A stretch of 64,000 nt of DNA from Betaproteobacteria bacterium (GCA_021730905.1 JAKFYK010000085.1:6884-70883); one strand, 5' to 3'; positions 2,201 through 63,060 are shown, counted from the stretch's first letter. Program-made: numbers and translations. Notes: generated from the letters alone by a model not told the origin.

Positions 2201-3391
2201 TCAGGACGCCTTAGCCACCACTCTTGTATCACAAGTATTTGTTTCATTTGATATTTTACTTTTGTCGGCACCCAGCACGATGCGCAGCATGCGGCGAAGC
2301 GGTTCCGCTGCACCCCATAGCAGTTGGTCAGCCACGGTAAACGCCGACAAATACTCGCCGCCCATCGCCAGTTTGCGCAGCCGTCCGACCGGTATATGTA
2401 AACGGCCGGTCACGGCAGCAGGGGTCAATTGCCGCTCGCTTGCCTCGCGCTCGTTGGGCACTACCCGCACCCATTCGTTCGCCGAGGCGAGAATGCGCGC
2501 AATTTCCTCCAGCGGCAAATCACGCTTCAGTTTGATGGTCAGCGCCTGGCTGTGGCAGCGCATTGCGCCCACGCGCACGCACAGGCTTTCGATGGGCGTT
2601 ACCGCTTTGCCGAACGCGTCGCCACGACCGAGGATTTTGTTGGTCTCGGCACCGCCTTTCCACTCTTCAAGCGACATGCCGGTTTTCATGTCCTGATCGA
2701 TCCACGGGATCAGATTGCCGGCCAGAGGTACGCCACGGAAGTTTTCCATCGGCAGCGAGCCGTCGGTCTGCTTGCCCAGCACCTTGCGGTCAATGTCGAG
2801 GATCGATGACGCCGGATCCGCGAGCAAGTCCTGCACCGCGCCATGCACCAGCCCGAACTGCGTCAGCATTTCCCGCATGTGCTGTGCACCACCACCGGAG
2901 GCCGCCTGATACGTCATGCAGGTCATCCACTCCACCAGATCATGCTGAAACAATCCGTGCAGTCCCATCAGCATGCAGCTCACCGTGCAATTGCCGCCGA
3001 TATAGTTTTTGATACCCTTGGCCATCGCCGCCTTGATCACCGACAGGTTCACCGGATCAAGAATAATCACCGCGTCATCTTTCATGCGCAGCGTTTTGGC
3101 GGCATCAATCCAATAGCCGTTCCAGCCAGCCGCGCGCAGCCGCGGATAAATTTCGCTGGTGTAATCGCTGCCCTGACAGGAAATCAGGATGTCCATTGCC
3201 TTCAAATCGGCAACGCTTTTCGCGTCCTTGACCGTGCCAACCGGCTTGCCGATGTCCGGCCCTTTACCGCCCGCCCGTGAAGTCGAAAAGAAAGCAGGAT
3301 CGATCAAATCAAAATCGCGCTCGTCGCGCATGCGTTGCACGAGCACTGAGCCCACCATCCCGCGCCAGCCGATTAAGCCTACCTTATTCAT
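2201..3391 (-). CDS. asd: Aspartate-semialdehyde dehydrogenase
   Basis: [10 protein letters not shown] nucleotide-binding motif, GGNCTVS catalytic Cys, [14 protein letters not shown] near the C-terminus, about 20-aa C-terminal extension. Confidence 0.97.
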
Positions 3392-3419
3392 AAAAATACC
3401 AATTAAAACAATTAGTTAA

Positions 3420-4484
3420 CTAGAGAGCCGCCACCACCGCATCACCCATTTCCTGCGTGCCCACTTTTTTCGTGCCGTCCTCGTAAATATCCGCCGTGCG
3501 CAGCCCTTGCGCAAGCACGTATTTCACCGCGGCTTCTATACGATACGCCCATTCATCCATATTGAACGTATAACGCAGCATCATGGCTGACGACAATATC
3601 GTTGCCAGCGGATTGGCGATGTTCTTGCCTGCGATATCCGGCGCCGAACCGTGGCTCGGCTCATACAACCCCTTACTGCTGGCGTCGAGCGAAGCCGAGG
3701 GCAACATGCCGATCGAGCCGGTGAGCATCGAAGCCTCGTCCGACAGAATATCGCCGAACATGTTGCCGGTGACAATCACGTCGAACTGCTTGGGGCTGCG
3801 CACCAGTTGCATGGCCGCGTTATCCACGTACATATGCGACAGCGCCACCTGCGGATATTTCTTTGCCACGTCGTTGACGATCTCGCGCCAAAAGCGGCTG
3901 GTTTCGAGCACGTTTTCCTTATCCACCGAACACAGCTTTTTGCCACGCTTTAACGCCGTCTGAAAGCCAACCTCGGCGATGCGGCGGATTTCCGGCTCGG
4001 AGTACAGCATCATGTCGTAGCCTTCACGCTCGCCGCGCGCATTGTCGCGGCGTCCACGCGGCTCGCCGAAATAAATATCACCGGTGAGCTCGCGGATAAT
4101 CATGATGTCCAGCCCCGACACCACCTCGGGTTTCAACGACGACGCACCCACCAATTCGGGATACATGATCGCCGGACGCAGATTGGCGAACAAACCCAAT
4201 TCCTTGCGGATGCGCAAAATGCCCTGCTCCGGACGCTGCGCGCGCGGCAACGCATCGTATTTTGGTCCACCGACCGCGCCGCACAGTACGGCGTCGGCTT
4301 CCTTCGCGAGCTTCAATGATGCTGCGGGCAGCGGATCACCCGACGCGTCAAAGCCAGCGCCGCCAAACGGCGCTTCTCCCATCTCAAGCTTCAACCCGTC
4401 CTTGGCCAGCGCGCGCAAGACTTTCGTCGCTTGAGCAACGATTTCCGGGCCAATACCGTCACCGGCTAAGACTGCGATTTTCAT
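3420..4484 (-). CDS. leuB: 3-isopropylmalate dehydrogenase
   Basis: [54 protein letters not shown]. Start moved to ATG 4484. Confidence 0.97.
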
Positions 4485-4494
4485 TGGCAAATCC

Positions 4495-4548
4495 GTGAAG
4501 GAGTGAAGACGTGAATGGGGTGCCCCTTTCACTCCTTCACAACTTCAC
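4495..4548. repeat. Inverted repeat built from three tandem 8-mers per arm in the leuD-leuB spacer
   Basis: GTGAAGGA GTGAAGAC GTGAATGG ... CCTTTCAC TCCTTCAC AACTTCAC around a central GGGGTGCCCC. Confidence 0.8.
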
Positions 4549-4553
4549 AATCG

Positions 4554-6835: not shown

Positions 6836-7981
6836 CTAGGCCTCGCTCAAATGTAATTTCCACCACAAAATCAACAACCCGGCGAGCGCCGCGCACGACG
6901 ACAGCGTAAATGTCCACGTCGGCCCCAGCCCCGCCCATGCATAACCGCTGGCAAATCCGCCGAGCGCGCCGCCCACGCCAAACGCAAAACTGCCATACAG
7001 CGCCTGCCCGCGCGCCTGATGCCGTCCGCGAAACAATTTATGAATCACGCCAATGGCTGCTGCGTGAAACGAACCAAACGTCGCCGCGTGCAAGGCCTGC
7101 GCCAGCACCAGCGCCATAAAGTTATCGATCAACCAACCGATCAGCAGAAACCGCAACACGGCACACGCAAAACTCGCGAGCAAAATTTGCCTCAGTGTGA
7201 ACGCCCGATACAAATGCGGCATCCACACAAAAATGCCGATCTCACAAATCACCCCCAGCGCCCACAGCCAGCCTGCCATCGACTTGCTGTAGCCGTGATC
7301 CACCAGATAAATCGTGTAGAACGTGTAATACGGCCCGTGCGCCACCGCCATTAGTGCCGCCGCCGTGACTAGCGCAATCACTTCCGGGCGCTTGAGGATG
7401 TCCCAGATCGGCTGCGTGTCCGAGGCATGCAATGGCGTCTTCGCGTCCGGCACAGCCCAGCACAATGCCAGCATGCACAGCATCAACGTCAACACTATCG
7501 ACAGCACCGCCTGCGGCGGCCGGTGATCGAGCAGATAACCCACGCCGATCACCGCGACAATAAAACCAACCGAGCCCCAAACGCGGATGCGCCCGTAGCG
7601 CGCGGTCTCGTCGCCCAGATGCGTGAGCGTCGTCGCCTCCACCAGTGGCAGTGCTGCGCTCCAGAAAAACATTACCGCCAGCAGCACCACGAACAACCAC
7701 GCGAACTGTGTGCTTGCGTATACGCCCAGCCACGCTACCGTGCCCGCCACACCCGCGAGGCGTGCAATATGCAAACCACTGGTACCGCGATCGGCCAGCC
7801 ATCCCCACAAGTGCGGCGCGACGATGCGCGTGAGTTGTGGCATCGACATCAGCACGCCGATCTCTACCGCTGACATGCCGACCGCATTCAGATACAACGT
7901 GAAAAACGGCGCGAACGCGCCGAGATAGGCAAAGTAAAAAAAATAAAAACCGGCGAGACGCCGGTAGGGTAAGGCAGGCAT
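6836..7981 (-). CDS. MFS transporter (MFS_1_like/HcaT-like)
   Basis: About 12 hydrophobic segments, YGRIRVWGSVGF motif. Confidence 0.85.
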   Translation of the reverse strand: MPALPYRRLAGFYFFYFAYLGAFAPFFTLYLNAVGMSAVEIGVLMSMPQLTRIVAPHLWGWLADRGTSGLHIARLAGVAGTVAWLGVYASTQFAWLFVVLLAVMFFWSAALPLVEATTLTHLGDETARYGRIRVWGSVGFIVAVIGVGYLLDHRPPQAVLSIVLTLMLCMLALCWAVPDAKTPLHASDTQPIWDILKRPEVIALVTAAALMAVAHGPYYTFYTIYLVDHGYSKSMAGWLWALGVICEIGIFVWMPHLYRAFTLRQILLASFACAVLRFLLIGWLIDNFMALVLAQALHAATFGSFHAAAIGVIHKLFRGRHQARGQALYGSFAFGVGGALGGFASGYAWAGLGPTWTFTLSSCAALAGLLILWWKLHLSEA

Positions 7982-8071
7982 GGCAACTGATATTTAATGA
8001 GTTACAAAATAATATAATAAAAACATATACTTACGAATAATTTTATGATTACCCCGCGCGTCAGAGCGGAG

Positions 8072-9043
8072 CTATTCCGCCTTGATCTTGGCGTCCCTGA
8101 TAACCTTGGCGTAGCGCGGAATTTCAGCGCGTAAAAAGGCCGCAAACGCCTCCGGCGTATTCGCGCTGATATCCACACCCATCGATACCAGCCGTTCGCG
8201 AGTCTGCGATTGATTCATAACCTGCGCCGCGTCACGCTGTATGCGGCTGACTATATCCGACTGCGTGCCAGCGGGCGCGAGCAATCCATACCAGGTCGCA
8301 ATGGAAAACCCCTTGAACCCGGATTCCTCGATGGTTGGAATATCAGGCATCAGCGGCGAACGGTTAGCGCTGGTGTTCGCCAGTGCGCGCAGCTTGCCGC
8401 TTTTGGCATGAGGCAGTGCCACCGGCAGGTTGCCGAACATGATCGGTATCTGGCCACCCAGCGTATCAGCGATCGCAGGGCCTTCTCCTTTGTACGGCAC
8501 GTGATTCATACGGACACCAAGCAGCGTATTCAATAACTCCCCCGTCATATGCGGCGTGGAACCGATACCGCCGGAGCCGTACGTCAGCACCCCTGCGCTT
8601 TTCTTTGCATACGCGGCAAATTCGCTGAATGTGCGCACCGGAAAAGAAGGATGCACCACCATCAATAACGGCGTCGATCCCATCAATGTAATCGGCGCAA
8701 AGTCCTTCAGCGTGTCGTAGGGCGCTTTGCCATATAACGCCGGTGCAACGGCAAGCCCCGACTGGAATCCCACCATCAGCGTATAGCCGTCCGGCGCCGC
8801 TTTCGCCACAAACTCGCCCGCGATCATGCCGGTTGCGCCCGGCCGGTTTTCCACTATCGCGCTTTGCCCCCACGTCTCGCTCAGGCGCTGCGCGACCACG
8901 CGTGTGATCACGTCCGTTGCTCCGCCAGCAGAGAGGCCAATCAGGATACGCACCGGCTTGACCGGATAATTTTGCGCAGCAGTGATACCGCTGCCAGCGA
9001 GAAACACGGCCATACCCACTGCAAGACTGCACCACTGTTTCAT
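8072..9043 (-). CDS. Bug/TctC family tripartite tricarboxylate transporter substrate-binding protein
   Basis: YPVKPVRILIG..AGG.TD, VENRPGA.G.IA, HVPYKGEGPAIADTLGG. Signal peptide from ATG 9043. Confidence 0.92.
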   Translation of the reverse strand: MKQWCSLAVGMAVFLAGSGITAAQNYPVKPVRILIGLSAGGATDVITRVVAQRLSETWGQSAIVENRPGATGMIAGEFVAKAAPDGYTLMVGFQSGLAVAPALYGKAPYDTLKDFAPITLMGSTPLLMVVHPSFPVRTFSEFAAYAKKSAGVLTYGSGGIGSTPHMTGELLNTLLGVRMNHVPYKGEGPAIADTLGGQIPIMFGNLPVALPHAKSGKLRALANTSANRSPLMPDIPTIEESGFKGFSIATWYGLLAPAGTQSDIVSRIQRDAAQVMNQSQTRERLVSMGVDISANTPEAFAAFLRAEIPRYAKVIRDAKIKAE

Positions 9044-10453: not shown

Positions 10454-11911
10454 TCAGGTCTTGTCGCCGCTATTGTCGTTACTTACGGACGACGTGGGCG
10501 TGGAACCTAACTGCTTCACCAAGCGCCACGCCATTACGCCCAGCACCAGCACGCCCAGGCCCAGCACACCCCACAGGCTCCAGCGTTTCCAGTCGATTTG
10601 CTCCTGCAAGCGCGCCTCGCCGCCGAGTTCCTTCTGTGGCTGCGCAGAGGTAGCCTGCACGTTGACGATGGGTTGCGTGCCGGTTTTCGCCGCGCGCACC
10701 GACGCACCCGCGTCTTCGCGATAACCCGGAATCAGCGATTCAATGGGCAGCGCTCCAGCCTGCGCGCCGCGATTGCCGTAGGCCAGCGTGAACGGCGATG
10801 TGCCGCGCGCGGCAAATACCAGTTGATGCGGCACCCAGCCTGCGTTCAACGTGGGCAGGCCGCCGCCCAGACCGCCGCCGCGCTGATCGACGCGGATCAT
10901 CCACCAGCGTTCGGACGACGCGCCCACCTGAATATCGGGGCTCGCCACTTCGCCGCCCGCTTGACGCAGCCGATAGGCCACGCCACGCGCGACACTGCGC
11001 CACGGCTGTTCAACGCTGCCGCGCGCAAGCACCTCGACCTGCACGACGGTGTTCGGCTCGGGCAACTCCAGACGCAGGCGGTCTATGGGAAATTGTCCTT
11101 TTAAATCAAATATATACTCACCAGCCTTTGCATCTGCTTTTGTATTTTGTACCGCGCTGAATTTTGCCCATTCACGCGGCGCTTCGATGAATTTTTCCGC
11201 AAGTTCGCCGCTGGCCGCGGTCATTTCCGGCGCGGCATTTTTCGCGCCCGCACTTGCGTAATCACTCACCCACGCGAGCCGCAGATATTTTGCTTTTTGT
11301 TGCGGCAACTCGACACGTTTTTGCTGCAAGCGCTGGCCGCCGACTTCCAAACTCAGCAGCGGCGCACCCGATGCCAGCGTGCGCCAGTTCGCGAGATCGT
11401 CGCTCGCATCGACGCGCAGCTTGCCGGAAAAACCTTCCGTGGCTTTCCAGTCAAGGTCGAGGGCGCGCAACGCGCGATCCTGTGCACTCATGTCGATAAG
11501 ATAAGCGACCGTTTCCTGCGCCGCGGCCGGTGCGCCGCTGGACTTCACATCCACACTCACCGCGCCGCTCGCGCTGCGACGCACGCTGATCGCCAGCCCG
11601 TCGATGCTCGCACCCGCCGGCGCTTTCAGCGGAAACAGCGTCAGCGGCGTGCTCAATCCTGCATCCACTTTTTCGGTACGGCGGGGACGGAACGCGTGCG
11701 GCACCACTTCCCCCGCACCGTTGAACACGCGCACGTCGCCAAGATCGCGGCGCGTCACACCCTGATAAACCGCCGGCGGCAGTGTCACGTCATACAAGGC
11801 TTCACTGCCGCTGGCTTCGATCTTCAGGCCGTAGGCATAATCCGCGGGCTTTTCGGCGGCAGAGGCAAAACTCACCATCAGAAAACCAGCAATAAGAACA
11901 GACGTTTTCAT
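10454..11911 (-). CDS. DUF3999 family exported protein with C-terminal TM anchor
   Basis: Start ATG 11911 overlaps the upstream stop (ATGA). Signal peptide MKTSVLIAGFLMVSFASA, DLGDVRVFNGAGEVVP, LVFAARG..PFTLAYG, C-terminal LWGVLGLGVLVLGVMAWRL. Confidence 0.8.
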   Translation of the reverse strand: MKTSVLIAGFLMVSFASAAEKPADYAYGLKIEASGSEALYDVTLPPAVYQGVTRRDLGDVRVFNGAGEVVPHAFRPRRTEKVDAGLSTPLTLFPLKAPAGASIDGLAISVRRSASGAVSVDVKSSGAPAAAQETVAYLIDMSAQDRALRALDLDWKATEGFSGKLRVDASDDLANWRTLASGAPLLSLEVGGQRLQQKRVELPQQKAKYLRLAWVSDYASAGAKNAAPEMTAASGELAEKFIEAPREWAKFSAVQNTKADAKAGEYIFDLKGQFPIDRLRLELPEPNTVVQVEVLARGSVEQPWRSVARGVAYRLRQAGGEVASPDIQVGASSERWWMIRVDQRGGGLGGGLPTLNAGWVPHQLVFAARGTSPFTLAYGNRGAQAGALPIESLIPGYREDAGASVRAAKTGTQPIVNVQATSAQPQKELGGEARLQEQIDWKRWSLWGVLGLGVLVLGVMAWRLVKQLGSTPTSSVSNDNSGDKT

Positions 11912-14676: not shown

Positions 14677-14707
14677 GGCTATCTCTCCATGTATTTGTTT
14701 TTAAACA

Positions 14708-16600: not shown

Positions 16601-16630
16601 TCCCTTGCCTATTTTTATAAGTATTTGTTT

Positions 16631-20076: not shown

Positions 20077-20132
20077 GCAGCTATCCAAACAAAAGCGGTA
20101 TTTCGTTCTGAAATATTATTAACTATTTGTTT

Positions 20133-32289: not shown

Positions 32290-32343
32290 CGCAAGTGAGT
32301 AACGTAAGTATTTGTTTTTATTTATTTTTAAAATTTTGCCACA

Positions 32344-50185: not shown

Positions 50186-50258
50186 GGCACTCTCAATTTA
50201 CTGTAAAAACAATAGATTATAACTGATATCGCTATGCAGCATTGTTACCAAAAAAAGG

Positions 50259-51737: not shown

Positions 51738-51760
51738 AATAATCCTTTAAAAACAAATAG

Positions 51761-52621
51761 TTACATTAAAGTCCGATGGCTGAGCGCCGGGAGATTGCGG
51801 CGCAGCCCCTGCACATGCGACAAATCGATATCGGCGATCACCACGCCCGCACCGCGCGGCAAACGATCCAGCACCACGCCCCACGGATCGATGATCATGG
51901 TATCGCCATGCGTTTCGCGGCCGTTTTCATGATGACCGCCCTGCGCAGGGGCCACCACGTACGCCAGGTTTTCGATGGCGCGCGCGCGCAACAGCGTTTC
52001 CCAATGCGCGCGGCCGGTAGTCTCGGTGAAAGCCGACGGCACGAAAATGATGTCCACCTCTTTCATCGAGCGGTACAGCTCCGGAAACCGCAGGTCGTAG
52101 CAAATCGACAGCCCCAAGCGGCCAAACGGCGACGCCAGTGTCACCGGCTGATGGCCCGGCTCGATGGTGCGCTCCTCGTGATACCGCTCTTCGCCCATCT
52201 GAAAACCAAACAGATGAATCTTGTCGTAGCGCGCGACCTGCTTGCCCGTGTGGTCGTACACCAGGCAACTGTTGCGCACGCGGTGCGGATCAGCCGACAC
52301 CAGCGGCGCCGAGCCGCCAACAATCCACACGCCGTGGGTGCGTGCGGCCTCGGACAGGAACGACTGGATCGGGCCCGTGCCTTCCGTTTCGCGCACGGCG
52401 ACCTTGTCGGTGTCTTTCATGCCCATCATGCAAAAGTATTCCGGCAGCGCCACCAGGTCCGCGCCCTGCGCGGCCGCCATGGCTATCAGGCGTCCGGCTT
52501 CGGCGAGATTGTCTTCGACACGCGGCGCGGAAACCATTTGCAGCGCCGCCAGGCGCGCGGCGCCGGGCGCTTTGCTACGCGCGGTTGCTGAAGCGGGCGT
52601 TGGTGAAAATCGGGAGTTCAT
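51761..52621 (-). CDS. Carbon-nitrogen hydrolase (Nit1-like deaminated glutathione amidase)
   Basis: LPEYF, YDKIHLF, ICYDLRFPE, RARAIEN. Located between yhdP and tldD. Confidence 0.93.
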   Translation of the reverse strand: MNSRFSPTPASATARSKAPGAARLAALQMVSAPRVEDNLAEAGRLIAMAAAQGADLVALPEYFCMMGMKDTDKVAVRETEGTGPIQSFLSEAARTHGVWIVGGSAPLVSADPHRVRNSCLVYDHTGKQVARYDKIHLFGFQMGEERYHEERTIEPGHQPVTLASPFGRLGLSICYDLRFPELYRSMKEVDIIFVPSAFTETTGRAHWETLLRARAIENLAYVVAPAQGGHHENGRETHGDTMIIDPWGVVLDRLPRGAGVVIADIDLSHVQGLRRNLPALSHRTLM

Positions 52622-52678: not shown

Positions 52679-55600
52679 CTAATCAACGTTGCGCACGGAC
52701 TCCGGCCGCTGCGGCGGATTGATTTTGGTCACCACCGGATCAACCCAGTTGCCGGTAACGCTGTAATTGAATGTGACCATCTCGTCCAAGGGATCCTTGA
52801 GCAGCTTCTGCGCAATAAAGGCCGCCAGCCCGGCAATGGGCCCGCCCGCGATCGCCCCTATGATGGACACGCCGTCCGACACATGCGGATTGACTTTCAC
52901 GCGCAGATCCTGCGTTTCCTTGTTGATATCCACCGAACCGCCCATCACCACGCGCGCAGATGGGCCGGTAATGCGGAAATTTTCCGTGGTAACAATGCCG
53001 CGATCTATCTTGACCGCGCCCAGCACTTCGTCAAACGCGAAGCCATCACTGAATATATCGCGAAAATCCAGCGTCAGGCGCCGCGGCAGTGACTGCAGAC
53101 TCACGATACCCAGCAGTTTTGCAATGCCCGGCTCCATTTTGAGAAACTGGCCTTTCACTGCCTGCAACACGAAATTGCCCGACAGCGTCGGATAGTCGAG
53201 CTGCTGCGGTCCGCCGCTCCAACTGAGCGATCCGCCGATGGTCGCCATGCCGCGGCGCACGCCTTCCGGATAACCCAGCCGCGTCAACATTTTACCCACG
53301 TCCGTCATGTCCCAGCGCACATTGACCATAGTGCGCGGATTGGCCAGCCACGACTGCCACACGCCGTCTACAGTCAGTATGCCATCCGCGTTGGATACCC
53401 TGAGCTGCTCAATGCGCCAGTCGCGATCTTGCGGTGTTGCCTTTAACTCGAGCTTGCCCAGCATCTTGCTGCCCATCTGAAAATTTTCTGCCACGATGTC
53501 CAGCGTCGGCAGTTGTGGCGTCTCCGTGACTGCTGATTTTTCCGCGGCAGGCACAACGGCCGCAAACGGCGTGGCTGCAGGAATGATGAATTTCTTCATC
53601 CGCGCCACCAGCCGTCCTTTGCCCTGCGGGCTCCAGTCGGCGGTACCCTCGAATTCTTTCCCGCTTAATGTATAGCGCGTAGTCGCAGCATCGGGTTTCA
53701 TGCTGGTGATCGCGATGTCGCTGAATTTTCGATCATAGACTTCGAGTTCGCCGAACTTCACGTCCAGCGCCGCCAGGGTGTAACTGACACCGCCGCCATC
53801 GCTGCTGGCTATCTTCAGCCAGCCGTCAAGATTTGCCGATTTGAGCGCACCGCTAATCCACACGCCATCGCGCTCCAGCTCGCCCGCCACGCCACCACCC
53901 AGGCGTACCACGCCGCGGTCGATCACCATCCGCTTGCCTTCGGTGTGGCGGCTGAATCGCGCGCTGATAAGTTCGCCATACGTCACGCCCACCACATCCC
54001 GGTCGTTGCTGACAAAGCGCCGCTCCACACGCACCGGTATGGACTCCGACACAGTTTTCACGAACGGCGCGGGCAGATTGGAGGCAATGCCCTGCAACGT
54101 CGATTCCAGCACCACGTCCACGGTTTTCTTGCGCACACTGAGCGTACCGCGCCAGTCCGCCGCACCACGCACATAAGTGAGCCACGCCGGCCCGCCTGCT
54201 CGCCGCACCGTGTCGGGATTGACGCGCCCCTGCAGGCCGATGCGGATGGTGCCGTCGCGCTGCGTACTGCCGGATACCGTCATGGGCCCGCCGAAAAACG
54301 TCGCGGTGGCAGCCGGCACATTCACACCCGCTTCGGTAAATTCGAGTCTGCCGTTGACTTGTTCGAGCGGCGGCAGCGAAGGCTCCACGATGATCCTGTT
54401 GTTGACCATCTGGAAAGCGCCGACCACGCGTGTCTTGTCGAGACTCGCCAACGGCAACTCCAGTTTCAGGTCGAGCTTGCCCGCGCCTTCAGCCTGCATG
54501 CCATCGGTGAAATGTTCGATATACCCCGCCACCGGACTGGCAGCAATGAACTTGAGAAAATCCGGCGTGGGGCCTTCCGCTTCTCCGGTAACCGTCAGCA
54601 CACGTCCTGCCGGCTGCGACAGATCCGGCATTTCAGCATGCACCTTGGACAACCGCACACCGTAGATTGTGCCGTGCCGCGCGACGATGTCTATGCGCTT
54701 GCCGCGAAACGCGAGGTCGCCTTCGATGTTTTCGATGTTAGGCCAGCTTTCTCCATAGCGCAGCGCGCCGCCGGAAAGCTTGGCGGTAACGAAAAATGTG
54801 CCGCCCTTGTTGTCCGGAAACGGAAACTCACGCAGATCGCCCTTGACGCGGAAACTCACGTCGCCGGATGTTCCCGCGACGAATGCCGCCTCCATCCACG
54901 GCCGGGCGCCTTTTGCGACGGTAACCGGCAGATAGCGCATCACGCTGCGCGCATCAGCGCGCATCAGATTGCCGGTAAGATCAATGATGCCCGGCTGCTC
55001 CGGCACCGTGCGATAACTGCCGCTCAAGGTTCCCGCAAGATCGGCATTGTGGTACGACACGTTCGACAACTTCAATTCAAAACCTTTGCTGTCGCGCGCC
55101 CAGCCCGCGTGCGCGGTCAGCGTATCGAACTGCAGCACCTCCTTGAACAGATCAGGCAGATCCAGTTTCATCTCGCGCGCCGTCAGCTGCGTGGTACCGC
55201 CCTTTTCCGTTGCATCCAGATGCCCGCTGACGCCCTTTAGTCCCGGCAGCGCTCCGTAGCGATTAATTGCCAGATCCTCGAAGCGGCCGCGCGCGCTGTA
55301 TTTCGCGGGGTCAGGCAATGCGCCGTCCCACTTCGCCAGCACATCAAACAATCGGCCCTGCGGCGACAGCTCTGACAGCCGCTTGCGCGTCTCGTCGTCA
55401 ATCGGCAAATGATCTGCCAGCGAAATCAGCGGCGCGATATCAATGGCATTGGCCTTGATTTCACCTGCGGTCGGCTTGCCTTCCGGATTGATGGCCGCCT
55501 TGAGGGTAAAATCCATCGGCTGCAGTGTCAGGTTTCCGGAAGTGGTCAGCGCGAGCTGCGCCGTTGAAAATTCGACCGTTTTCGGCGTTTTTTTCCAGCC

Positions 55601-56575
55601 TAGGCGCCCGGAAAGATGCGACAGGTCGAGTTGGGGCAAGTCCTTGGCAAGCCGTGTGCGCACGTTGGACAACCGTACATCGGCGAGCAGTTCATGCACC
55701 GTCATCGCCCCGACACTTGCCCATGCGCGCACGGCGCCGGCGCCTTGCGAAAACTCGAAAGGAAAGGGTATCCATGTACGCCACGCCGCGATGTCCGCGT
55801 AATCAAGCTGCACGAAGACGCGTCCTTTCCATGCCGCAAGATCCCGCATGGACGCCCCCTCAAGGTCGCCGCGCAGATCGACCGCACTTGCCAGCTTCTC
55901 GGGCGGAATCGCCTTCAGGCCAAAACGATGGTGACGACCGCGATTGACCAGATGTGCTCGCACCTGCTGCAGCATCAATGTTGGCACGCCGCGCACCTCG
56001 TCGGTCCAGGCAATGGCCGCATTGTGTATTTCAATATCACGTTGTGCCAGCAGCCAGTCGGAAAAACCGCCCTCGCGGCTATCGCCGGACATTTCAATGC
56101 CCGCGACGGAAATGATGCCGCGCTTGTCGCGTCGGATATCCAGCGCCGGTTCATACAAATCAATGGAATGAAAGCGCGGGCTCCACGTCGGTATTGACAG
56201 CCACGACACCGTGCTATCCACGCGCTGCAATTTGAGCGCGGCACGCCCTGATTTGTCGTGCAGCACCACGGCTTCAAGCTTCAATTCGGGACGCAACCCG
56301 TCCCAGCTGGCGTCTATGCGCCCGATGGTCACGTGCTGCCCGACCGCCTTGCTCACGGATTGGGCAATCGTCCCCCGGTAACGCTCGATATTGGGCAGCA
56401 CCCAATAGCGCAACGCAAGCACCGACGCGGCGGCGATCAGAACCAGGGCGAGCACAATCCACACCAGCTTGTGCCACACCCACGCCGCGACGCGCATGGT
56501 GGCACCGCCGAGTCCGCTGGAAATTGCCTTTATCGTCACGCAATGCCTGTTAAAATATGAAAATGAAACAACCAC
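52679..56575 (-). CDS. yhdP: YhdP/AsmA-like phospholipid transport protein
   Basis: N-terminal TM followed by LRYWVLPNIERYR, C-terminal LPRRLTLDFRDIFSDGFAFD and Y.VTGNW.DP. The start may be downstream (e.g. ATG 56497). Confidence 0.92.
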   Translation of the reverse strand: MVVSFSYFNRHCVTIKAISSGLGGATMRVAAWVWHKLVWIVLALVLIAAASVLALRYWVLPNIERYRGTIAQSVSKAVGQHVTIGRIDASWDGLRPELKLEAVVLHDKSGRAALKLQRVDSTVSWLSIPTWSPRFHSIDLYEPALDIRRDKRGIISVAGIEMSGDSREGGFSDWLLAQRDIEIHNAAIAWTDEVRGVPTLMLQQVRAHLVNRGRHHRFGLKAIPPEKLASAVDLRGDLEGASMRDLAAWKGRVFVQLDYADIAAWRTWIPFPFEFSQGAGAVRAWASVGAMTVHELLADVRLSNVRTRLAKDLPQLDLSHLSGRLGWKKTPKTVEFSTAQLALTTSGNLTLQPMDFTLKAAINPEGKPTAGEIKANAIDIAPLISLADHLPIDDETRKRLSELSPQGRLFDVLAKWDGALPDPAKYSARGRFEDLAINRYGALPGLKGVSGHLDATEKGGTTQLTAREMKLDLPDLFKEVLQFDTLTAHAGWARDSKGFELKLSNVSYHNADLAGTLSGSYRTVPEQPGIIDLTGNLMRADARSVMRYLPVTVAKGARPWMEAAFVAGTSGDVSFRVKGDLREFPFPDNKGGTFFVTAKLSGGALRYGESWPNIENIEGDLAFRGKRIDIVARHGTIYGVRLSKVHAEMPDLSQPAGRVLTVTGEAEGPTPDFLKFIAASPVAGYIEHFTDGMQAEGAGKLDLKLELPLASLDKTRVVGAFQMVNNRIIVEPSLPPLEQVNGRLEFTEAGVNVPAATATFFGGPMTVSGSTQRDGTIRIGLQGRVNPDTVRRAGGPAWLTYVRGAADWRGTLSVRKKTVDVVLESTLQGIASNLPAPFVKTVSESIPVRVERRFVSNDRDVVGVTYGELISARFSRHTEGKRMVIDRGVVRLGGGVAGELERDGVWISGALKSANLDGWLKIASSDGGGVSYTLAALDVKFGELEVYDRKFSDIAITSMKPDAATTRYTLSGKEFEGTADWSPQGKGRLVARMKKFIIPAATPFAAVVPAAEKSAVTETPQLPTLDIVAENFQMGSKMLGKLELKATPQDRDWRIEQLRVSNADGILTVDGVWQSWLANPRTMVNVRWDMTDVGKMLTRLGYPEGVRRGMATIGGSLSWSGGPQQLDYPTLSGNFVLQAVKGQFLKMEPGIAKLLGIVSLQSLPRRLTLDFRDIFSDGFAFDEVLGAVKIDRGIVTTENFRITGPSARVVMGGSVDINKETQDLRVKVNPHVSDGVSIIGAIAGGPIAGLAAFIAQKLLKDPLDEMVTFNYSVTGNWVDPVVTKINPPQRPESVRNVD

Positions 56576-56608
56576 TTAGCGGGCTTTTTTCATTGTCGTC
56601 ATTCTACT

Positions 56609-59314
56609 GTGTTTTATCAGCCCGTGGAACCCATTAACGCGTCCGCAGCCCCGGACGTGGACGCAGCGGTCGCGCGCGCGCGACAGTTCAGCCGCTACTT
56701 CGAGCGTATTCTGACGGCAGAGCCGGGGCTGCTTCACCCTATAGACCTGCTGACGCCGTTCGAGGTTGCATGCGCTACCGCAGATGATGCGGCAGCGCTC
56801 ACGCGGGATGAGTTGCAGCAGATGTTGCGCCGCCTGCGCAAACAGGCAATGGCGACCCTGATCGTGCGCGATATGGCCGGTTGGGCGGACCTTGCGGAAG
56901 TCACGCAAACCATGACGCGGCTGGCCGAATGCACGATAACCGCCGCGCTCGACTGGGTGACCAACGATCTCGCGCACAGCACCGGCACGCCACGCGGTTC
57001 CACCGGCCGGCCTCAACAACTGCATGTGGTCGGCATGGGCAAGCTGGGCGGCGGCGAACTCAACGTGTCCTCCGACATTGATCTGGTCTTCGTCTATCCC
57101 GAAGACGGCGATACCGACGGTACGCGCGTGTTGAGCAACCACGAGTATTTCCTGCGCGCCGGGCGCGCGCTGATCGGATTGCTGGCCGAACTGACCACGG
57201 ATGGCTACGTGTTCCGCGTGGACATGCGTCTACGGCCCTACGGCGACAGCGGACCGCTGGCAACCAGCTTTGAGATGCTCGAAAACTACCTGATCACGCA
57301 GGGACGCGAGTGGGAACGCTATGCGTGGATCAAGGGACGCGTGATCACCGGCGAACAAGGTAACGAACTGATGGCGCTGGTGCGGCCATTCGTGTTTCGC
57401 CGTCATCTTGATTACAGCGCGCTCGCCTCGATGCGCGAGTTGCACAGCCAGATACGCCGCGAAGTGGAGCGCCGCGACAGGGCCGACAACATCAAGCTCG
57501 GTCGCGGCGGCATCCGCGAAATCGAATTCATCGCGCAGGTGTTTCAGTTGATACGCGGCGGACACGACGCGGCGCTGCGCCGGCAGCCGACGCTGGATGT
57601 GCTGGCACTACTTGCCGAACGCGGCCTGCTGCCGTCAGCCGTGGTTGCGGAATTGACGCAAGCCTATGTCTTTCTCAGGAATCTGGAGCACCGCCTGCAA
57701 TACCGCGATGATCAGCAGACGCATGCACTGCCCGTCAGCGCCGATGACCAGGCGGACGTGGCGCGCAGCATGGGTTATGCGGATTACGGCGCATTCATAC
57801 AGGTGTTGAGCGGCTATCGTGAAGCGGTAGCCCGGCACTTCGATGCCCTGTTTGCCGAAGCGCGCGCCGAACAACACGCGCTCGCGCCGCTGTGGATACA
57901 GAGCAGCGACACGCAATCCGGCACGGCCCGGCTCGGCGAACTGGGATTTCAGCGCGCTGCGGAGTTGCAGTCGCGCATCGCGCACATGCACGATTCCGCG
58001 CGCTACCGCCAGATGCCCGCGGGCAGCCAGTCGCGCTTTGACCGCCTGGTGCCACTGGCCATTGAAAGTGCTGCGGGCGGCGGCAATGCCGATGCGACAC
58101 TGGAGCGGCTGCTGGTATTTCTGGAGGGCATCAGCCGGCGGGAATCCTATCTCGCGCTGCTCGAAGAATATCCGCAGGCACGCGCGCAACTGACAGCGTT
58201 GATGCGTGCCAGCCCCTGGGTCGCGCAGTACCTGACGCAATATCCTATACTGCTGGACGAACTGCTCGATGCGCGCACGCTGAATACGCCGCCCGACTGG
58301 CCGGCGCTCGCCGCGCTGTTGCACGCCGCCGTAAACGACGCGGAGGACGATGCGGAACGGCAGATGGACGTGTTGCGCCATTTCAAGCACGCGCAAACCA
58401 TGCGTCTCGTCGCGCAAGACCTCGCGGGAACGCTGCCGCTGGAAACGCTGAGCGATCATTTGTCCGATCTCGCCTGCGTGATACTGGCCGAAACGGTGCG
58501 CCTGGCGTGGCAGGGCGTGCGACAGCGCCATCGCCCCGTACCGGCGTTCGCCGTCATCGGTTACGGCAAACTCGGCGGCAAGGAATTGGGCTATGCCTCC
58601 GATCTCGATCTGGTTTTTCTGTACGATGACGATGCGCCGGAAGCCGCCGAAAACTACGCTCGCCTGGCGCAGCGCATCAGCACCTACCTCACCAGCGTCA
58701 CAGCCGCTGGACAGCTGTACGACACCGATCTGCGGCTGCGGCCCGACGGCGCGAGCGGATTACTGGTAAGCACGCTGCCCGGGTTTCGCGATTACCAGAT
58801 GAAACAGGCGTGGGTGTGGGAACATCAGGCGCTGACGCGCGCGCGATTTACCGCCGGCGACACCGCCATCGGCGATGCCTTCGAAGCCATCCGCCGCGAT
58901 GTGCTGTGCCGCCCGCGTGACCTGCAGGCGCTGCGTGCCGAAATTGTGGCAATGCGCGAAAAAATGCATGCGGCCCACCCCAACCGCAGCGGCCTGTTCG
59001 ATGTGAAGCACGATCCCGGCGGCATCGTGGATGTTGAATTTATCGTGCAATATCTGGTGCTTGGCCAAGCACACCGGCACGCAGCGCTCGCAGGCAATAT
59101 CGGCAATCTTGCGCTGCTGAAGCTGGCCGCGCAGCTACAATTGATCGCCCCCGTGCCCGCGGATGCCGCGCATGCCGCCTATCGCGAGTTCCGGCGTCTG
59201 CAACATACGCTACGCTTGCAGGGAGAACGTTACGCCCGTGTCCCGCGCGAGTCTGTGGACCTGCACGCGGCGGCAGTGCGCACACTGTGGCAACACGTCA
59301 TGGCGAACGCGTAG
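56609..59314 (+). CDS. glnE: Bifunctional glutamine synthetase adenylyltransferase/adenylyl-removing enzyme
   Basis: Two NTase motifs, MGKLGGGELNVSSDIDL and YGKLGGKELGYASDLDL. Confidence 0.97.
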   Translation: MFYQPVEPINASAAPDVDAAVARARQFSRYFERILTAEPGLLHPIDLLTPFEVACATADDAAALTRDELQQMLRRLRKQAMATLIVRDMAGWADLAEVTQTMTRLAECTITAALDWVTNDLAHSTGTPRGSTGRPQQLHVVGMGKLGGGELNVSSDIDLVFVYPEDGDTDGTRVLSNHEYFLRAGRALIGLLAELTTDGYVFRVDMRLRPYGDSGPLATSFEMLENYLITQGREWERYAWIKGRVITGEQGNELMALVRPFVFRRHLDYSALASMRELHSQIRREVERRDRADNIKLGRGGIREIEFIAQVFQLIRGGHDAALRRQPTLDVLALLAERGLLPSAVVAELTQAYVFLRNLEHRLQYRDDQQTHALPVSADDQADVARSMGYADYGAFIQVLSGYREAVARHFDALFAEARAEQHALAPLWIQSSDTQSGTARLGELGFQRAAELQSRIAHMHDSARYRQMPAGSQSRFDRLVPLAIESAAGGGNADATLERLLVFLEGISRRESYLALLEEYPQARAQLTALMRASPWVAQYLTQYPILLDELLDARTLNTPPDWPALAALLHAAVNDAEDDAERQMDVLRHFKHAQTMRLVAQDLAGTLPLETLSDHLSDLACVILAETVRLAWQGVRQRHRPVPAFAVIGYGKLGGKELGYASDLDLVFLYDDDAPEAAENYARLAQRISTYLTSVTAAGQLYDTDLRLRPDGASGLLVSTLPGFRDYQMKQAWVWEHQALTRARFTAGDTAIGDAFEAIRRDVLCRPRDLQALRAEIVAMREKMHAAHPNRSGLFDVKHDPGGIVDVEFIVQYLVLGQAHRHAALAGNIGNLALLKLAAQLQLIAPVPADAAHAAYREFRRLQHTLRLQGERYARVPRESVDLHAAAVRTLWQHVMANA

Positions 59315-60643: not shown

Positions 60644-60819
60644 ATCCGCTCCTCTGCTGTGTGTTGCACCTTGCTCAAGACACCCGCATTTTAATACAGC
60701 CCCTGTCCCGCTCACCATGATTTAGCGCAAACATTCGTGCTGCCGTCCGACAAGTTGCCATCCGTCGCCGGCAAATGCGCTAAAATAATGCTTCTAATCG
60801 ATCTCTGACGGAGCAATTC

Positions 60820-61746
60820 ATGTCGATGGCAGACCGTGATGGTCACATCTGGTACGACGGCAAGCTGGTGCCGTGGCGCAACGCCACCACCCACGTTCTT
60901 ACGCATTCGCTGCACTACGGCCTCGCGGTGTTCGAGGGCGTGCGTGCCTACCACACAGTCAAGGGCACGGCCATTTTCCGTCTGAGAGAACACACGCAGA
61001 GGCTGCTCAATTCGGCGCACATCTACCTGATGAAAATCCCCTACAGCATCGACACGCTGATGGACGCACAAAAAGAGGTGGTGCGCGCGAATAAACTGGA
61101 ATCGTGCTATCTGCGCCCGATCGCGTTCTACGGTTCGGAAAAAATGGGCGTGTCGCCCAAGGGCAACACGGTGCATGTGGCGATCGCGGCGTGGCCGTGG
61201 GGCGCGTATCTCGGCACAGACGCCATCGAAAAGGGCATACGCGTGAAAACGTCTTCCTACGCGCGCCACCACGTCAACGTGTCCATGACCCGCGCCAAGG
61301 TTTCCGCCACCTACGCCAATTCGATCCTCGCCAACCTCGAAGCCACCGAACACGGCTACGACGAGGGCTTGCTGCTCGATGTAGATGGTTTTGTCGCCGA
61401 AGGCTCCGGCGAAAATCTGTTCATGGTGAAAGACGGTAAAATTTACGAGCCGGAATTGACCAGCGCGCTGATCGGCATCACGCGGGACTCCGTCATCACG
61501 CTCGCGCGCGAGATGGGCTACACGGTGGCCGCCAAGCGCATCACGCGCGACGACCTGTATATTGCCGACGAAGCTTTTTTCACCGGCACTGCCGCTGAAG
61601 TCACGCCGATACGCGAGGTCGATGGCCGCACCATCGGCGGCGGGCAACGCGGCCCCCTCACCGCCAAACTGCAAAACGCATTCTTCGACTGCGTGAACGG
61701 CAAATCGGAAAAGCACAGCGACTGGCTGTCGCCGGTCGCTGCGTGA
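60820..61746 (+). CDS. ilvE: Branched-chain amino acid aminotransferase
   Basis: HSLHYGLAVFEG, YLRP, EGSGENLF, GITRD, FTGTAAEVTPI. Confidence 0.97.
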   Translation: MSMADRDGHIWYDGKLVPWRNATTHVLTHSLHYGLAVFEGVRAYHTVKGTAIFRLREHTQRLLNSAHIYLMKIPYSIDTLMDAQKEVVRANKLESCYLRPIAFYGSEKMGVSPKGNTVHVAIAAWPWGAYLGTDAIEKGIRVKTSSYARHHVNVSMTRAKVSATYANSILANLEATEHGYDEGLLLDVDGFVAEGSGENLFMVKDGKIYEPELTSALIGITRDSVITLAREMGYTVAAKRITRDDLYIADEAFFTGTAAEVTPIREVDGRTIGGGQRGPLTAKLQNAFFDCVNGKSEKHSDWLSPVAA

Positions 61747-61770
61747 ACACAGGGACGCGCGGGCAATACC

Positions 61771-61974
61771 ATGGCAGAGCAAACCGAAAACAAGTCAAGG
61801 CATATTGAAGTTACCGCAGCGGATTTGCCGCTGCACTGCCCGACACCGGCCATGCTGCTGTGGAATGCGCATCCGCGCGTATTCATGCCGATTGAGAAAA
61901 CGGGCGCGGCCTTGTGCCCGTACTGCGGCACCCAGTACACGCTCAAGGGCGGGCCGGCCAAGTCCGGTCATTAG
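61771..61974 (+). CDS. zf-CHCC zinc-finger domain protein
   Basis: LHCP...HPRVF...CPYCG. Confidence 0.9.
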   Translation: MAEQTENKSRHIEVTAADLPLHCPTPAMLLWNAHPRVFMPIEKTGAALCPYCGTQYTLKGGPAKSGH

Positions 61975-61992
61975 CCGGTAGCCATTCACACG

Positions 61993-63060
61993 ATGAAAAT
62001 CCTCGTCGTCGCCCCGTCCTGGGTCGGCGACACCGTGCTGGCGCAGCCGATGTTCAGACTGCTGCACCAGCGCCATGCGAATCTCTCGGTTGATGTACTT
62101 GCACCGCCCTTCACGCTGCCGCTGCTCGCGCGCATGCCCGAAGTGCGCCGCGGTATCGTCGCGCGTTTCGGCCACGGCGAACTGAAATTCGGCGAACGCC
62201 AGCGTCTTGCGCGCGAACTCGCAGCCGAGCGCTATGATCAGGCCATAGTGCTGCCGAATTCGCTGAAGTCGGCGCTGATTCCGCTGCTCGCAAAAATCCC
62301 GCTGCGCACCGGATTTCGCGGTGAAATGCGCTATGGCCTGCTCAACGACCTGCGACGCCTCGACGAGCAGGCGCTGCCAAAAATGGTGGAGCGTTTCGCT
62401 ACGCTGGCACTGCATCGCGGCGAAGCGTTGCCACAGCCGCTGCCCACGCCGCGCTTGTCAGTCGATCCGAGCAATATTGAAAAAATACTTGAAAAACAAA
62501 TACTTAACAAAAACCAGCCAATAGCCGTCCTGTGTCCCGGCGCCGAGTACGGTCCGGCCAAGCGCTGGCCCGCCGAGTATTTCGGCACGCTGGGCAAAGC
62601 ACTCGCCGCCGAAGGCTATGCGGTATGGCTGGTCGGCTCGCCCAAAGACGCCGCCATCGGCGACGACATCCTACGTGCCAGCGACAGCGCCTGCGTCAAT
62701 CTCTGCGGCAAGACATCACTCGAAGACGCCATCGATCTCATCGGCATGGCCGCGCTGGTCGTCACTAATGATTCCGGTCTGATGCACGTCGCCGCGGCGC
62801 TCGACCGGCCAACGCTGGCGCTCTACGGTTCCAGCAGTCCCGCCTTTACGCCACCGCTTTCGGATAAAGCCAAAATCGTCAAAATCGACATCGCATGCAG
62901 CCCCTGTTTCAAACGCGAATGTCCGCTCGGCCATTTCAACTGCATGCGCGAACTCACACCGGAGCGCATCGGCGCCGCGGTATCGTTGCTATCGGATCGC
63001 GATCGCAAGCCACAGAACACCCCTCGTCCGGCGCCGGTGGATTCCGCTACTCCACCTTGA
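61993..63060 (+). CDS. waaF: LPS heptosyltransferase II
   Basis: MKILVVAPSWVGD, PGAEYGPAKRWP, TNDSGLMHVAAA. Confidence 0.96.
   Translation: MKILVVAPSWVGDTVLAQPMFRLLHQRHANLSVDVLAPPFTLPLLARMPEVRRGIVARFGHGELKFGERQRLARELAAERYDQAIVLPNSLKSALIPLLAKIPLRTGFRGEMRYGLLNDLRRLDEQALPKMVERFATLALHRGEALPQPLPTPRLSVDPSNIEKILEKQILNKNQPIAVLCPGAEYGPAKRWPAEYFGTLGKALAAEGYAVWLVGSPKDAAIGDDILRASDSACVNLCGKTSLEDAIDLIGMAALVVTNDSGLMHVAAALDRPTLALYGSSSPAFTPPLSDKAKIVKIDIACSPCFKRECPLGHFNCMRELTPERIGAAVSLLSDRDRKPQNTPRPAPVDSATPP

Follow-up and report, generated by a model that had tools for sequence, protein, structure and literature searches.

A 13-bp motif, AAACAAATACTTA, recurs in hundreds of copies over the genome of this betaproteobacterium, and the sequence evidence suggests, with a probability that we would place at about 0.6, that these copies form a cis-encoded lattice of candidate high-affinity sites for integration host factor (IHF). 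The anatomy of the sites, their copy number, placement, syntenic recurrence and taxonomic spread, and the DNABII gene complement of the respective genomes, are direct observations, from which we infer that IHF is the binder, that the sites are occupied and that the array makes up for the loss of HU. According to the usual view, the proteins of the bacterial nucleoid recognise degenerate sites or bind without specificity, which is why the folding of a chromosome is hard to read from its sequence. The candidate sites described here are explicit, numerous and countable, and are linked to a rare state, the possession of IHF-type DNABII genes only, with no normal HU.

Copy number and sites in the window

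The window, that is, the entire 64-kb stretch of DNA analysed, contains four exact copies of AAACAAATACTTA compared to none in any of 100 shuffles, in agreement with the contention of the initial annotation that this number is beyond chance; at up to two mismatches, there are 14 copies against a shuffle mean of 0.28 and a maximum of 2 (100 shuffles). The enrichment, originally noticed in the window alone, extends genome-wide and is thereby confirmed as a real property of this genome (G000; 5,108,166 bases), with 282 exact copies, 592 at one mismatch or fewer and 846 at two or fewer, the latter distributed strand-symmetrically (405/441). All coordinates reported in the initial annotation are correct, and all variants that it named, except for the one at 50207, are among the 14 window matches. 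The 50207 site and those that had been called weaker are present as written; the former fits the general pattern whereas the others are poorer matches. The sites are as follows.

2232..2244, minus strand: AAACAAATACTTG, one mismatch, within the last ~40 nt of the called gene 2201..3391(-)
3406..3418, plus strand: AAACAATTAGTTA, between 2201..3391(-) and 3420..4484(-), which are co-directional and 28 nt apart; oriented opposite to the genes
8021..8033, plus strand: AAACATATACTTA, in the gap between 6836..7981(-) and 8072..9043(-)
14688..14700, minus strand: AAACAAATACATG, in the 31-nt gap between 14708..16600(-) and 11908..14676(-, DUF2339)
16618..16630, minus strand: exact site, taking up the 30 nt that separate 16631..18331(-) from 14708..16600(-); the 13-mer adjoins the TAA stop of the upstream gene
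20120..20132, minus strand: AAACAAATAGTTA, immediately past the TAA stop of the M17 aminopeptidase gene 20133..21521(-)
24605..24617, minus strand: TAACATATACTTA, between 24628..25953(-) and the start region of 23063..24625(-)
28890..28902, plus strand: AAACAAATGCTTA, in the start region of 28347..28910(-), beside 28960..30048(-)
32305..32317, minus strand: exact site, between 30148..32289(+), encoding MetRS, and 32344..33453(+), of the enolase superfamily, which are 54 nt apart; oriented opposite to the genes
36221..36233, plus strand: TAACAAATACTTG, intragenic, in 35073..36647(-), at about residue 138
43375..43387, plus strand: exact site, its final TTA being the stop codon (TAA, minus strand) of dnaE, 43385..46846(-)
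50207..50219, plus strand: weaker site AAACAATAGATTA with a variable N4, in the gap between 49115..50185(-) and 50259..51737(-)
51751..51763, plus strand: AAACAAATAGTTA, its TTA being the stop codon of 51761..52537(-)
56566..56578, plus strand: AAACAACCACTTA, between the divergent genes 52679..56539(-), of the YhdP family, and 56609..59314(+)
62494..62506, plus strand: exact site, intragenic, in 61993..63060(+), which encodes a GT9 heptosyltransferase; translated as K-Q-I-L

The site at 36221 falls in the interdomain linker that follows the Complex1 30-kDa domain (24-137) and precedes the 49-kDa domain (294-446), and the one at 43375..43387 lies 9 nt from the start of 42691..43398(-). In the heptosyltransferase gene, codons for ...ARLGL... 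are replaced by those for ...KKQIL... without an indel, and a related 13-mer (at most two mismatches) is found at these codons in 10 of 11 same-clade loci.

Anatomy of the sites

The canonical 34-bp IHF site combines WATCAA and TTR with a pair of AA steps spaced by 9 bp and with 4-6 consecutive A in the 5' part (PMC1874591). The full element in G000 spans ~35 bp and includes all four of these elements in the geometry of the lambda H' site (A6, 8 nt, TATCAATTTGTTG), namely, an A-tract, followed by 8-10 bp that include an AA/TT step, and then by AAWCAA-ATAS-TTA. The WATCAA-type half-site is AAACAA in G000, with C at a frequency of 0.95 and the flanking A at 0.85-0.99; in G012, G031 and G129, the dominant core is the perfect consensus, AATCAA. 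Exactly 4 bp downstream, the TTR element takes the form of TTA (T 0.98, T 0.97, A 0.94), with G as the main alternative at the last base (14 vs 1 other). The steps 9 bp apart are the proline intercalation sites; the upstream one, scored as the bases at -5/-4, which precede the A4-A5 (CAA) step by 9 bp, is represented by AA in 343 sites and by TT in 320, out of 844. Runs of at least 4 A are present in 475/844 sites and those of at least 3 in 661/844, the last A of the run being located at -12..-9 in 533/844. Thus, the original observation of a core one mismatch away from the IHF consensus and preceded by a 5' A/T tract is strengthened by the presence of all four IHF-site elements at the H' spacing. 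The logo is asymmetric and shows no conserved sequence beyond about -19..+21.

Some features of the motif count against IHF. The N4 spacer is ATAC or ATAG in 413 of the 619 AAACAA-N4-TTA matches, a bias correctly noted from the window, and the consensus is sharp at every core position, unlike the degenerate IHF regulon sites of E. coli; this combination suggests a drive or a more specific reader. The strong preference of G000 for A at core position 2 (282 vs 15 for the consensus T) also argues against IHF.

Placement, orientation and spacing

In G000, 78% of the sites are intergenic. Co-directional gaps harbor 482 sites, 232 in the orientation of the genes and 250 in the opposite one, whereas divergent gaps contain 112 and convergent gaps 62; an additional 78 sites are located at least 90 nt inside confident genes. 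Some sites occupy protein linkers that were recoded without an indel. The fixed orientation and distance to genes that characterize a promoter or operator regulon are not observed, and in this respect the suggestion of a lattice rather than a regulon, with copies at more than promoters, is borne out by the distribution. Both orientations occur, as had been noted, and orientation shows no association with local GC skew (Fisher p 0.25), as it would for polar signals of the Chi or KOPS type, nor any dependence on that of the adjacent site (343 same, 328 different). None of the sites overlaps an Rfam family. Given the even orientation split, the lack of GC-skew polarity and the lack of Rfam overlap, an RNA, promoter or polar signal is disfavoured.

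Spacing was assessed on 45 contigs of at least 30 kb, with 555 sites and 510 gaps. The mean gap is 6.0 kb and the median 4.85 kb, and the CV is 0.80 compared to 0.99, 0.95 and 0.985 (sd about 0.04) under three random-placement nulls. Gaps under 1 kb account for only 4.9% of the total against 11-16% in the nulls, and therefore short gaps are depleted although the spacing is not periodic. Accordingly, the 'roughly even' spacing claimed in the initial annotation stands with regard to the depletion of short gaps but not with regard to periodicity or to the mean gap, given there as 4.3 kb. None of the 68 contigs of at least 20 kb is devoid of sites, and the longest stretch without one is a polysaccharide cluster of low GC content, which may be an acquired region.

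A specific association, which speaks for IHF, is seen at sigma-54-type intergenic promoters: in 8 of 25, a site separates the UAS-like repeats from the promoter and lies at a distance of 7-43 bp upstream from the -24 box. Sites are enriched in such gaps relative to other gaps (odds ratio 2.95, p 0.016), and among 181 sigma-54-like boxes, a site is found within 110 bp upstream of 12 and within 110 bp downstream of a single one. Small samples from other genomes do not show this link (0/14, 0/7, 1/8 and 0/21 boxes).

Dialects, taxonomic spread and DNABII genes

The motif is present in 19 of the 20 other genomes of the genus. Across the 21 genomes, the share of T at core position 2 varies continuously from 0.4% to 97%; G006, for one, holds both forms (218 A, 363 T), and in G010 both half-sites are kept while N4 is variable. 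Of the syntenic intervals derived from G012, 19 of 33 contain a G000 site, and of those derived from G010, 11 of 19, compared to 656 of 4740 gaps overall, and within the shared intervals the dialect differs, the sites being distinguished by point changes. The swaps, W for W at position 2 and S for S at position 9 (C in 282 copies, G in 131), appear to be those tolerated by minor-groove and indirect readout.

In the order Burkholderiales, arrays were detected in only 5 of 151 genomes. The 35-bp architecture is shared with another genus of the family (G129) and with another family (G031, G091, G142), and the two lineages, in which the 13-mer and its flanks are the same, occupy distant positions on the DnaE tree, separated by array-free families; the AU test rejects a single clade of array lineages (p 1.6e-84). 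A single optimum shared by unrelated lineages would be explained by a common protein such as IHF.

Four of the five array genomes encode only IhfA and IhfB, and the fifth also has a divergent HU-like gene (array and HU-like gene occur together in G091); likewise, at most two PF00216 genes are found in 4 of 5 array genomes and in 5 of 146 array-free ones. G000 encodes IhfA and its relatives both IhfA and IhfB; ihfB was not found in the G000 assembly, which is 92% complete. The array-free genomes G024, G072, G045 and G015 also have only IHF-type genes, so HU loss is not sufficient for an array. These array-free genomes, the missing ihfB, the HU-like gene in G091, the lack of both motif and ComEC in G015 and the sigma-54 link unseen in the small samples from other genomes all count against the IHF hypothesis.

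Hypothesis and alternatives

The hypothesis that appears to accommodate most of these findings is that each copy is a full-length, near-optimal binding site of the IhfA/IhfB heterodimer, which would sharply bend the DNA at roughly 700-850 positions per genome. These sites would have been placed wherever the sequence tolerated them, in tiny intergenic gaps, over shared stop codons and in protein linkers, while avoiding distances below ~1 kb, and together would constitute a cis-encoded lattice of bends, one per ~6 kb, that might organise or insulate the chromosome in lineages where, HU being missing, IHF is the sole normal DNABII protein. The combination of arrays with the lack of a normal HU gene implies that these uncultured bacteria may encode part of chromosome folding in the DNA sequence itself. 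A far more tentative generalisation, which we are inclined to doubt, is that the chromosome of a GC-rich bacterium that loses HU can acquire a hard-wired replacement, a lattice of several hundred optimal IHF sites, which is assembled by successive base changes in protein linkers and between genes, is maintained at about one per 6 kb and would fix nucleoid bends or the insulation of supercoils and transcription units; such a predictable, sequence-encoded chromatin organisation would have arisen at least twice in Burkholderiales, with the same 13-mer. If IHF does bind the sites, these genomes are a natural experiment on the extent of cis-encoded nucleoid architecture, on how point mutation creates a motif across a genome and maintains its sharpness, and on the normal role of HU.

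Could a competence machinery that prefers motif-bearing DNA generate the same pattern, with biased uptake and recombination raising the copy number and sharpening the consensus? Like the DUS of Neisseriaceae and the USS of Pasteurellaceae, the motif is lineage-restricted (though also present in an unrelated family), strand-symmetric, very sharp at all positions across hundreds of copies, split into species-level dialects that change inside shared syntenic intervals, and spaced more evenly than random, with short gaps depleted. It is also imposed, without indels, on tolerant protein segments, the recoding described for USS (PMC2817400). ComEC is encoded in 20 of 21 genomes of the genus and in all five other genomes checked, ComEA-like genes are present in 21 of 21, and G015 (97% complete) is both the sole genome of the genus without ComEC and the sole one without the motif; a possibly acquired origin of the site-free polysaccharide cluster would fit as well. 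However, ComEC is also found in the array-free G024, and therefore the gene repertoire does not distinguish between the explanations. The four IHF-site elements at the right spacing would be coincidental in an arbitrary receptor tag, and the 13-mer and flanks are identical in two lineages distant on the DnaE tree; moreover, the motif is an AT-rich word in GC-rich DNA, G006 has both A and T at position 2, sites are enriched upstream but not downstream of sigma-54 boxes, and the density is several-fold below the roughly 1 per kb of Neisseria and Haemophilus. A targeted literature search found no uptake sequence described in Burkholderiales, and we know of none outside Neisseriaceae and Pasteurellaceae; if the motif were one, it would be, to our knowledge, the first. 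On balance, we consider this explanation unlikely.

We also give little credence to another abundant reader of AT-rich DNA, an H-NS/MvaT-like silencer or a lineage-specific factor: the fixed N4 and the preference for A at position 2 in G000 do exceed the known reading of E. coli IHF, and several IHF-bearing genomes lack arrays, but the asymmetric 35-bp layout agrees with lambda H' element for element, and G010 retains the half-sites while N4 varies, as the IHF consensus allows. The high copy number and mostly intergenic location could be taken to indicate a selfish miniature repeat of the MITE or REP kind, spread by copy-and-paste without a cellular role, a scenario that we find very improbable. 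The logo has no inverted-repeat symmetry, no duplicated flank and, beyond about -19..+21, no conserved positions; the copy in the heptosyltransferase gene arose by substitution at constant length, with no length-changing insertion, terminal inverted repeats or target duplication; sites recur in syntenic intervals of other species, where the dialect changes by point mutations; and spacing is more even than random. Nor are there the imperfect palindromes, stem-loops and mosaics of REP/BIME elements, the logo being asymmetric and only 14 of 846 sites having a neighbour within 100 bp.

Relation to known systems

Compared to the canonical IHF sites (lambda attP H'; WATCAANNNNTTR with a 5' A-tract), the putative IHF sites described here have the same four elements at the same spacing, over 34-35 bp, and at 8 of 25 promoters occupy the classical position between activator sites and a sigma-54 promoter. 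The canonical sites, however, are scattered and degenerate, whereas here there are several hundred near-identical copies per genome, with N4 nearly fixed at ATAS and, in most species, A over T at core position 2, lying inside operons, sharing stop codons and extending into coding DNA. The IHF-binding REP clusters of E. coli (BIME-1/RIP/RIB) are likewise dispersed, mostly intergenic IHF-type repeats, often at gene ends (see PMC2817692), but here the flanking palindromic REP units and the mosaic structure are lacking, the copies originate and diverge in situ and not as mobile modules, and the copy number is several-fold higher. Similarly to the cyanobacterial HIP1, Chi, KOPS and matS, the motif is a short word kept far above chance genome-wide, but it is not palindromic like HIP1, not polar like Chi and KOPS, and not limited to one macrodomain. 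In practical terms, the motif tells native from recently acquired DNA in these MAGs.

Abundance and anatomy of the site

The AT-rich 13-mer AAACAAATACTTA is present at each of the four window positions reported in the initial annotation, and none of 100 dinucleotide-preserving shuffles contained a copy. When up to two mismatches are allowed, the window, which lies on contig C10, holds 14 matches against 0.28 expected; all the variants originally listed are among these 14 except the one at 50207, which also exists as written. The enrichment extends to the whole assembly of the source genome, G000 (5,108,166 bases, 59% GC, 182 contigs, 92% complete), with 282 exact copies, 592 copies at up to one mismatch and 846 at up to two, split 405/441 between the strands and represented at least once on each of the 68 contigs of at least 20 kb.

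Alignment of 844 sites delineates an element of about 35 bp, with information ending at about -19 and +21 relative to the core. An A-rich stretch from -16 to -9 (A frequency 0.65-0.82 from -14 to -11) is followed by a W-W step at -5/-4, TAA, the core A-A-A-C-A-A-A-T-A-[C/G]-T-T-A and some eight AT-rich bases. In leave-one-out counts the core is sharp at all positions (282 A to 1 other base at position 0; 282 T to 3 at position 7), with complement-type swaps accepted at two of them, A/T at position 2 (282/15) and C/G at position 9 (282/131). The bias of the central N4 towards ATAC and ATAG, already noticed in the window, holds genome-wide (282 and 131, respectively, of 619 AAACAA-N4-TTA matches).

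In PMC1874591, the canonical 34-bp IHF site combines WATCAA and TTR with two bases 9 bp apart, usually AA, that are the points of proline intercalation, and a tract of four to six A within the 5' half. The H' site of lambda attP is laid out as AAAAAA, 8 nt and TATCAATTTGTTG. The initial annotation recognized an IHF-like core with a 5' A tract, and the likeness goes further, with all four sequence elements present at the H' spacing: at 9 bp upstream of the A4-A5 step, 343 of the 844 sites have AA and 320 have TT, 475 of the 844 have an A-run of at least 4, and the A-run ends at -12 to -9 in 533. Close neighbours are rare, with just 14 of the 846 sites lying within 100 bp of another, and there are a few back-to-back inverted site pairs with a common A-rich side (TAAGTATTTGTTTTTAAACAAAT...).

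Inverted site pairs in G000
C16:70273-70300
C11:7647-7674
C63:8619-8645
C7:30064-30091

Placement, spacing and orientation

Placement was assessed against our own crude, hexamer-based set of 4922 gene calls (89.7% coding, starts approximate).

Placement of the 846 sites of G000
Intergenic, all: 656
Co-directional gaps: 482 (232 in the genes' orientation, 250 opposite)
Divergent gaps: 112
Convergent gaps: 62
Inside called genes: 178
Contig edges: 12

The impression from the window that the sites lie at gene ends, inside operons and inside ORFs, with no coherent set of promoters, is thus borne out by the near-equal orientations in co-directional gaps (232 and 250), the 62 convergent-gap sites and the 178 sites in genes. 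Co-directional gaps of 20-60 bp are occupied in about 20% of cases (172/862). The terminal TTA provides the stop codon of an opposite-strand gene in 53 sites, and the TAA immediately upstream is a stop codon in 16. Among the 178 in-gene sites, 67, which lie no more than 60 nt from a called start, may be miscalls, and 101 are deep; 78 sites lie at least 90 nt inside confident genes. Neither of the two intragenic window sites compared with Pfam domains interrupts a domain core: the one at 36221 is located in the linker of a protein that fuses Complex1 30-kDa and 49-kDa domains, and that at 62494 in a segment of a GT9 heptosyltransferase (Pfam match to residues 70-314) that is variable among relatives. 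Orientation and placement together rule out a promoter or operator reading. An RNA element is rejected as well, with no Rfam family overlapping a site and with strand symmetry arguing against it.

A distinct pattern is seen at sigma-54 promoters. In 8 of 25 intergenic sigma-54-type promoters of G000, the -24 box is preceded by a site at a distance of 7-43 bp; several of these sites have repeated activator-like sequences on one side and the promoter on the other, and the odds ratio relative to other gaps is 2.95 (p 0.016). Among 181 sigma-54-like boxes of this genome, a site is found within 110 bp upstream in 12 and downstream in 1. IHF acts at sigma-54 promoters from the same upstream position. 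In the small samples from other genomes, where most boxes probably lie in coding DNA, an upstream site accompanies 0/14 boxes in G129, 0/7 in G031, 1/8 in G012 and 0/21 in G010.

Are the sites evenly spaced, as they first appeared to be? The 510 gaps on the 45 contigs of at least 30 kb have a mean of 6.0 kb, a median of 4.85 kb and a coefficient of variation (CV) of 0.80, compared with 0.99 +/- 0.04 for uniform placement, 0.95 +/- 0.04 for one site per random gap and 0.985 +/- 0.043 for length-weighted gaps. The spacing is therefore more even than random, although not periodic, mainly because close pairs are avoided: gaps under 1 kb make up 4.9% of the total against 15.8%, 12.1% and 11.3% in the uniform, random-gap and length-weighted nulls, and gaps over 15 kb 4.9% against 7.1-7.6%. 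The longest site-free stretch of the genome, C1:55970-103948 (48 kb, outside the window, 55% GC versus 59%), encodes glycosyltransferases, sugar methyltransferases and an HldE-like kinase/cytidylyltransferase, a gene content that probably marks an exchangeable surface-polysaccharide locus.

The occurrence of both orientations without polarity, another feature of the initial annotation, was upheld: orientation does not follow GC skew (p 0.25), which rules out a polar replichore motif, and relative to the neighbouring site it is the same in 343 cases and different in 328. A search for a DnaA-box cluster (at least 4 boxes in 600 bp) beside a site turned up no cluster at all in this fragmented assembly.

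Evolution in place

Of 11 close loci (77-83% identity), 10 have the heptosyltransferase site at up to two mismatches and in the same codons; it is missing from the 29 more distant loci examined (L012-L040). The alignment is free of indels; where outgroups use GC-rich codons for ...ARLGL..., the clade has ...KKQIL... Relatives were read as samples of 190-400 kb each; for the congeners G012 and G010, 400-kb samples anchored on G000 were compared for synteny. A G000 site, mostly in matching orientation, is found in 19/33 (G012) and 11/19 (G010) of the syntenic intervals, against a background of 656/4740 gaps. The sequences show different preferred variants, or dialects: AATCAAATACTTA in G012, with 71 AATCAA-N4-TTA per 400 kb, and TAAAAACAA in G010, with sTTA kept, N4 variable and 25 copies per 400 kb. 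In 21 genomes of the genus, T accounts for as little as 0.4% and as much as 97% of copies at position 2, and G006 combines 218 A with 363 T copies, a pattern showing that both forms persist in one cell. In-place recurrence and the dialects exclude copy-and-paste spread; together with the logo and the indel-free intragenic copy, the syntenic recurrence with dialect change rules out a mobile repeat.

Taxonomic distribution

Of 20 other genomes of the genus, 19 contain the exact 13-mer, in 12-434 copies; the four other genera of the family searched first lack it. An order-wide scan of 151 genomes, among which G050, flagged as unpublished, was counted as ordinary, compared the pattern AAWCAANNNNTTA with its reversed control.

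Array-bearing genomes (matches to pattern/reversed control)
G000, source genome of the window: 686/88
G129, another genus of the same family: 442/13
G031, one genus of another family: 488/74
G091, same genus as G031: 620/67
G142, same genus as G031: 538/58

Beyond these five, none of the 151 genomes with at least 40 matches exceeds about 3-fold. G129 and G031 share the 35-bp layout and preferred N4 of G000. In a DnaE tree of 17 rows, from which G072 and G058 were left out, the second array family groups with family f49 (95/91), and the window's family falls elsewhere, in a clade that it shares with five array-free families (92/97). The AU test rejects uniting the array-bearing rows in a single clade (delta lnL 236, p 1.6e-84), a test of one protein with the group named after the tree was seen. 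The outlier of the genus, G015, lacks the motif, has 49% GC compared with about 59-61% in the three other congeners measured, and is the sister of G000 and G001 in the DnaE tree.

The complement of IHF and HU genes

The listing of IHF and HU paralogues proposed at the outset yielded a single PF00216 (DNABII) gene in G000, ihfA, on the 2.9-kb contig C178, downstream of a frame that we take to be pheT from the usual pheS-pheT-ihfA order; tblastn of the 92%-complete assembly found no second one. Of 16 other genomes of the genus, 14 have two such genes, G008 one and G015 three. Typing by sequence in five genomes (G000, G001, G002, G012, G015) gave IhfA and IhfB types, none HU-like, the third gene of G015 being an IhfB-like paralogue; with the remaining 12 assessed by counts, HU appears to be missing from all 17 genomes searched. 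Many genomes of the genus have a small ComEA-like gene at about 4.7 kb from ihfB, both on one contig (e.g. G001:C97, G007:C46, G003:C39, G009:C87). In G000, contig C71 ends some 1.5 kb from this gene, which may account for ihfB being unassembled.

In the order, at most two PF00216 matches are found in 9 of the 151 genomes, including four of the five array genomes versus 5 of the 146 others. By sequence, G129, G024, G031, G072 and G045 have IhfA and IhfB only, and G142 (82% complete) IhfB only; G041 and G093 were assessed by counts. G091 has IhfA, IhfB and the only HU-like gene in the array-bearing genomes (L224, C61:8345-8614), with an altered arm that reads GHNPRTH where GRNPxTG is the usual pattern; the gene is perhaps in decay, or perhaps a contaminant. 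G024, G072, G045 and G015 lack HU and yet are array-free, so the link between HU loss and the array is one-way only, and HU loss is ruled out as a sufficient cause. Just two or three independent origins underlie this link.

Comparison of IhfA proteins (L081, L094-L100, L115, L230-L232) shows that an aspartate in the stretch ...FQLRDKPQRPGRNP... is conserved where HU is present and replaced in most HU-less lineages: the genus has I, Q or V at this position, G091 and G031 have I or V, G072 has K and G045 has Q. The aspartate is kept in G129 and is E in G024.

Possible role of the array

So what could this array, with the anatomy, distribution and gene complement that we observe, be? The explanation that we favour, with a probability of roughly 0.6, is a cis-encoded lattice of high-affinity IHF sites, for which we infer binding, occupancy and an architectural effect. 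On this hypothesis, IhfA/IhfB would bind every site and sharply bend the DNA there; sites would accumulate by point mutation wherever tolerated and be held near the affinity optimum, with no need for any closer than about 1 kb. In lineages without normal HU, the lattice would furnish DNA bends at fixed positions, or barriers that separate transcription units. Insulation of transcription units by HU has been reported in E. coli (PMC4992867).

The initial annotation offered a DNA-uptake sequence as an alternative, and the sharp consensus with in-place dialect turnover is what molecular drive would be expected to produce. ComEA-like genes are present in 21/21 genomes of the genus and ComEC in 20/21, the lone exception, G015 (97% complete), being the lone genome without the motif. 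However, the array-free G024 has ComEC too, and the gene, found in array-bearing and array-free genomes alike and missing only from G015, does not discriminate between them. Given also the element-by-element match to the IHF site, the identical motif in unrelated lineages and the upstream bias at sigma-54 promoters, we regard uptake as unlikely. Nor is it probable that the protein reading these AT-rich sites is one other than IHF. The literature on IHF repeats, Burkholderiales uptake sequences and HU-less bacteria, at the level of listings and abstracts, yielded no description of the motif; a single paper, on Francisella and unrelated, contains the 13-mer or its complement.

Another observation in the window

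The window also contains an Rfam match to the Burkholderia sRNA Bcj11 at 15815-15936 (-), with 59.6 bits against a gathering score of 49, within a called MFS-acyltransferase fusion gene, 14708..16600(-).
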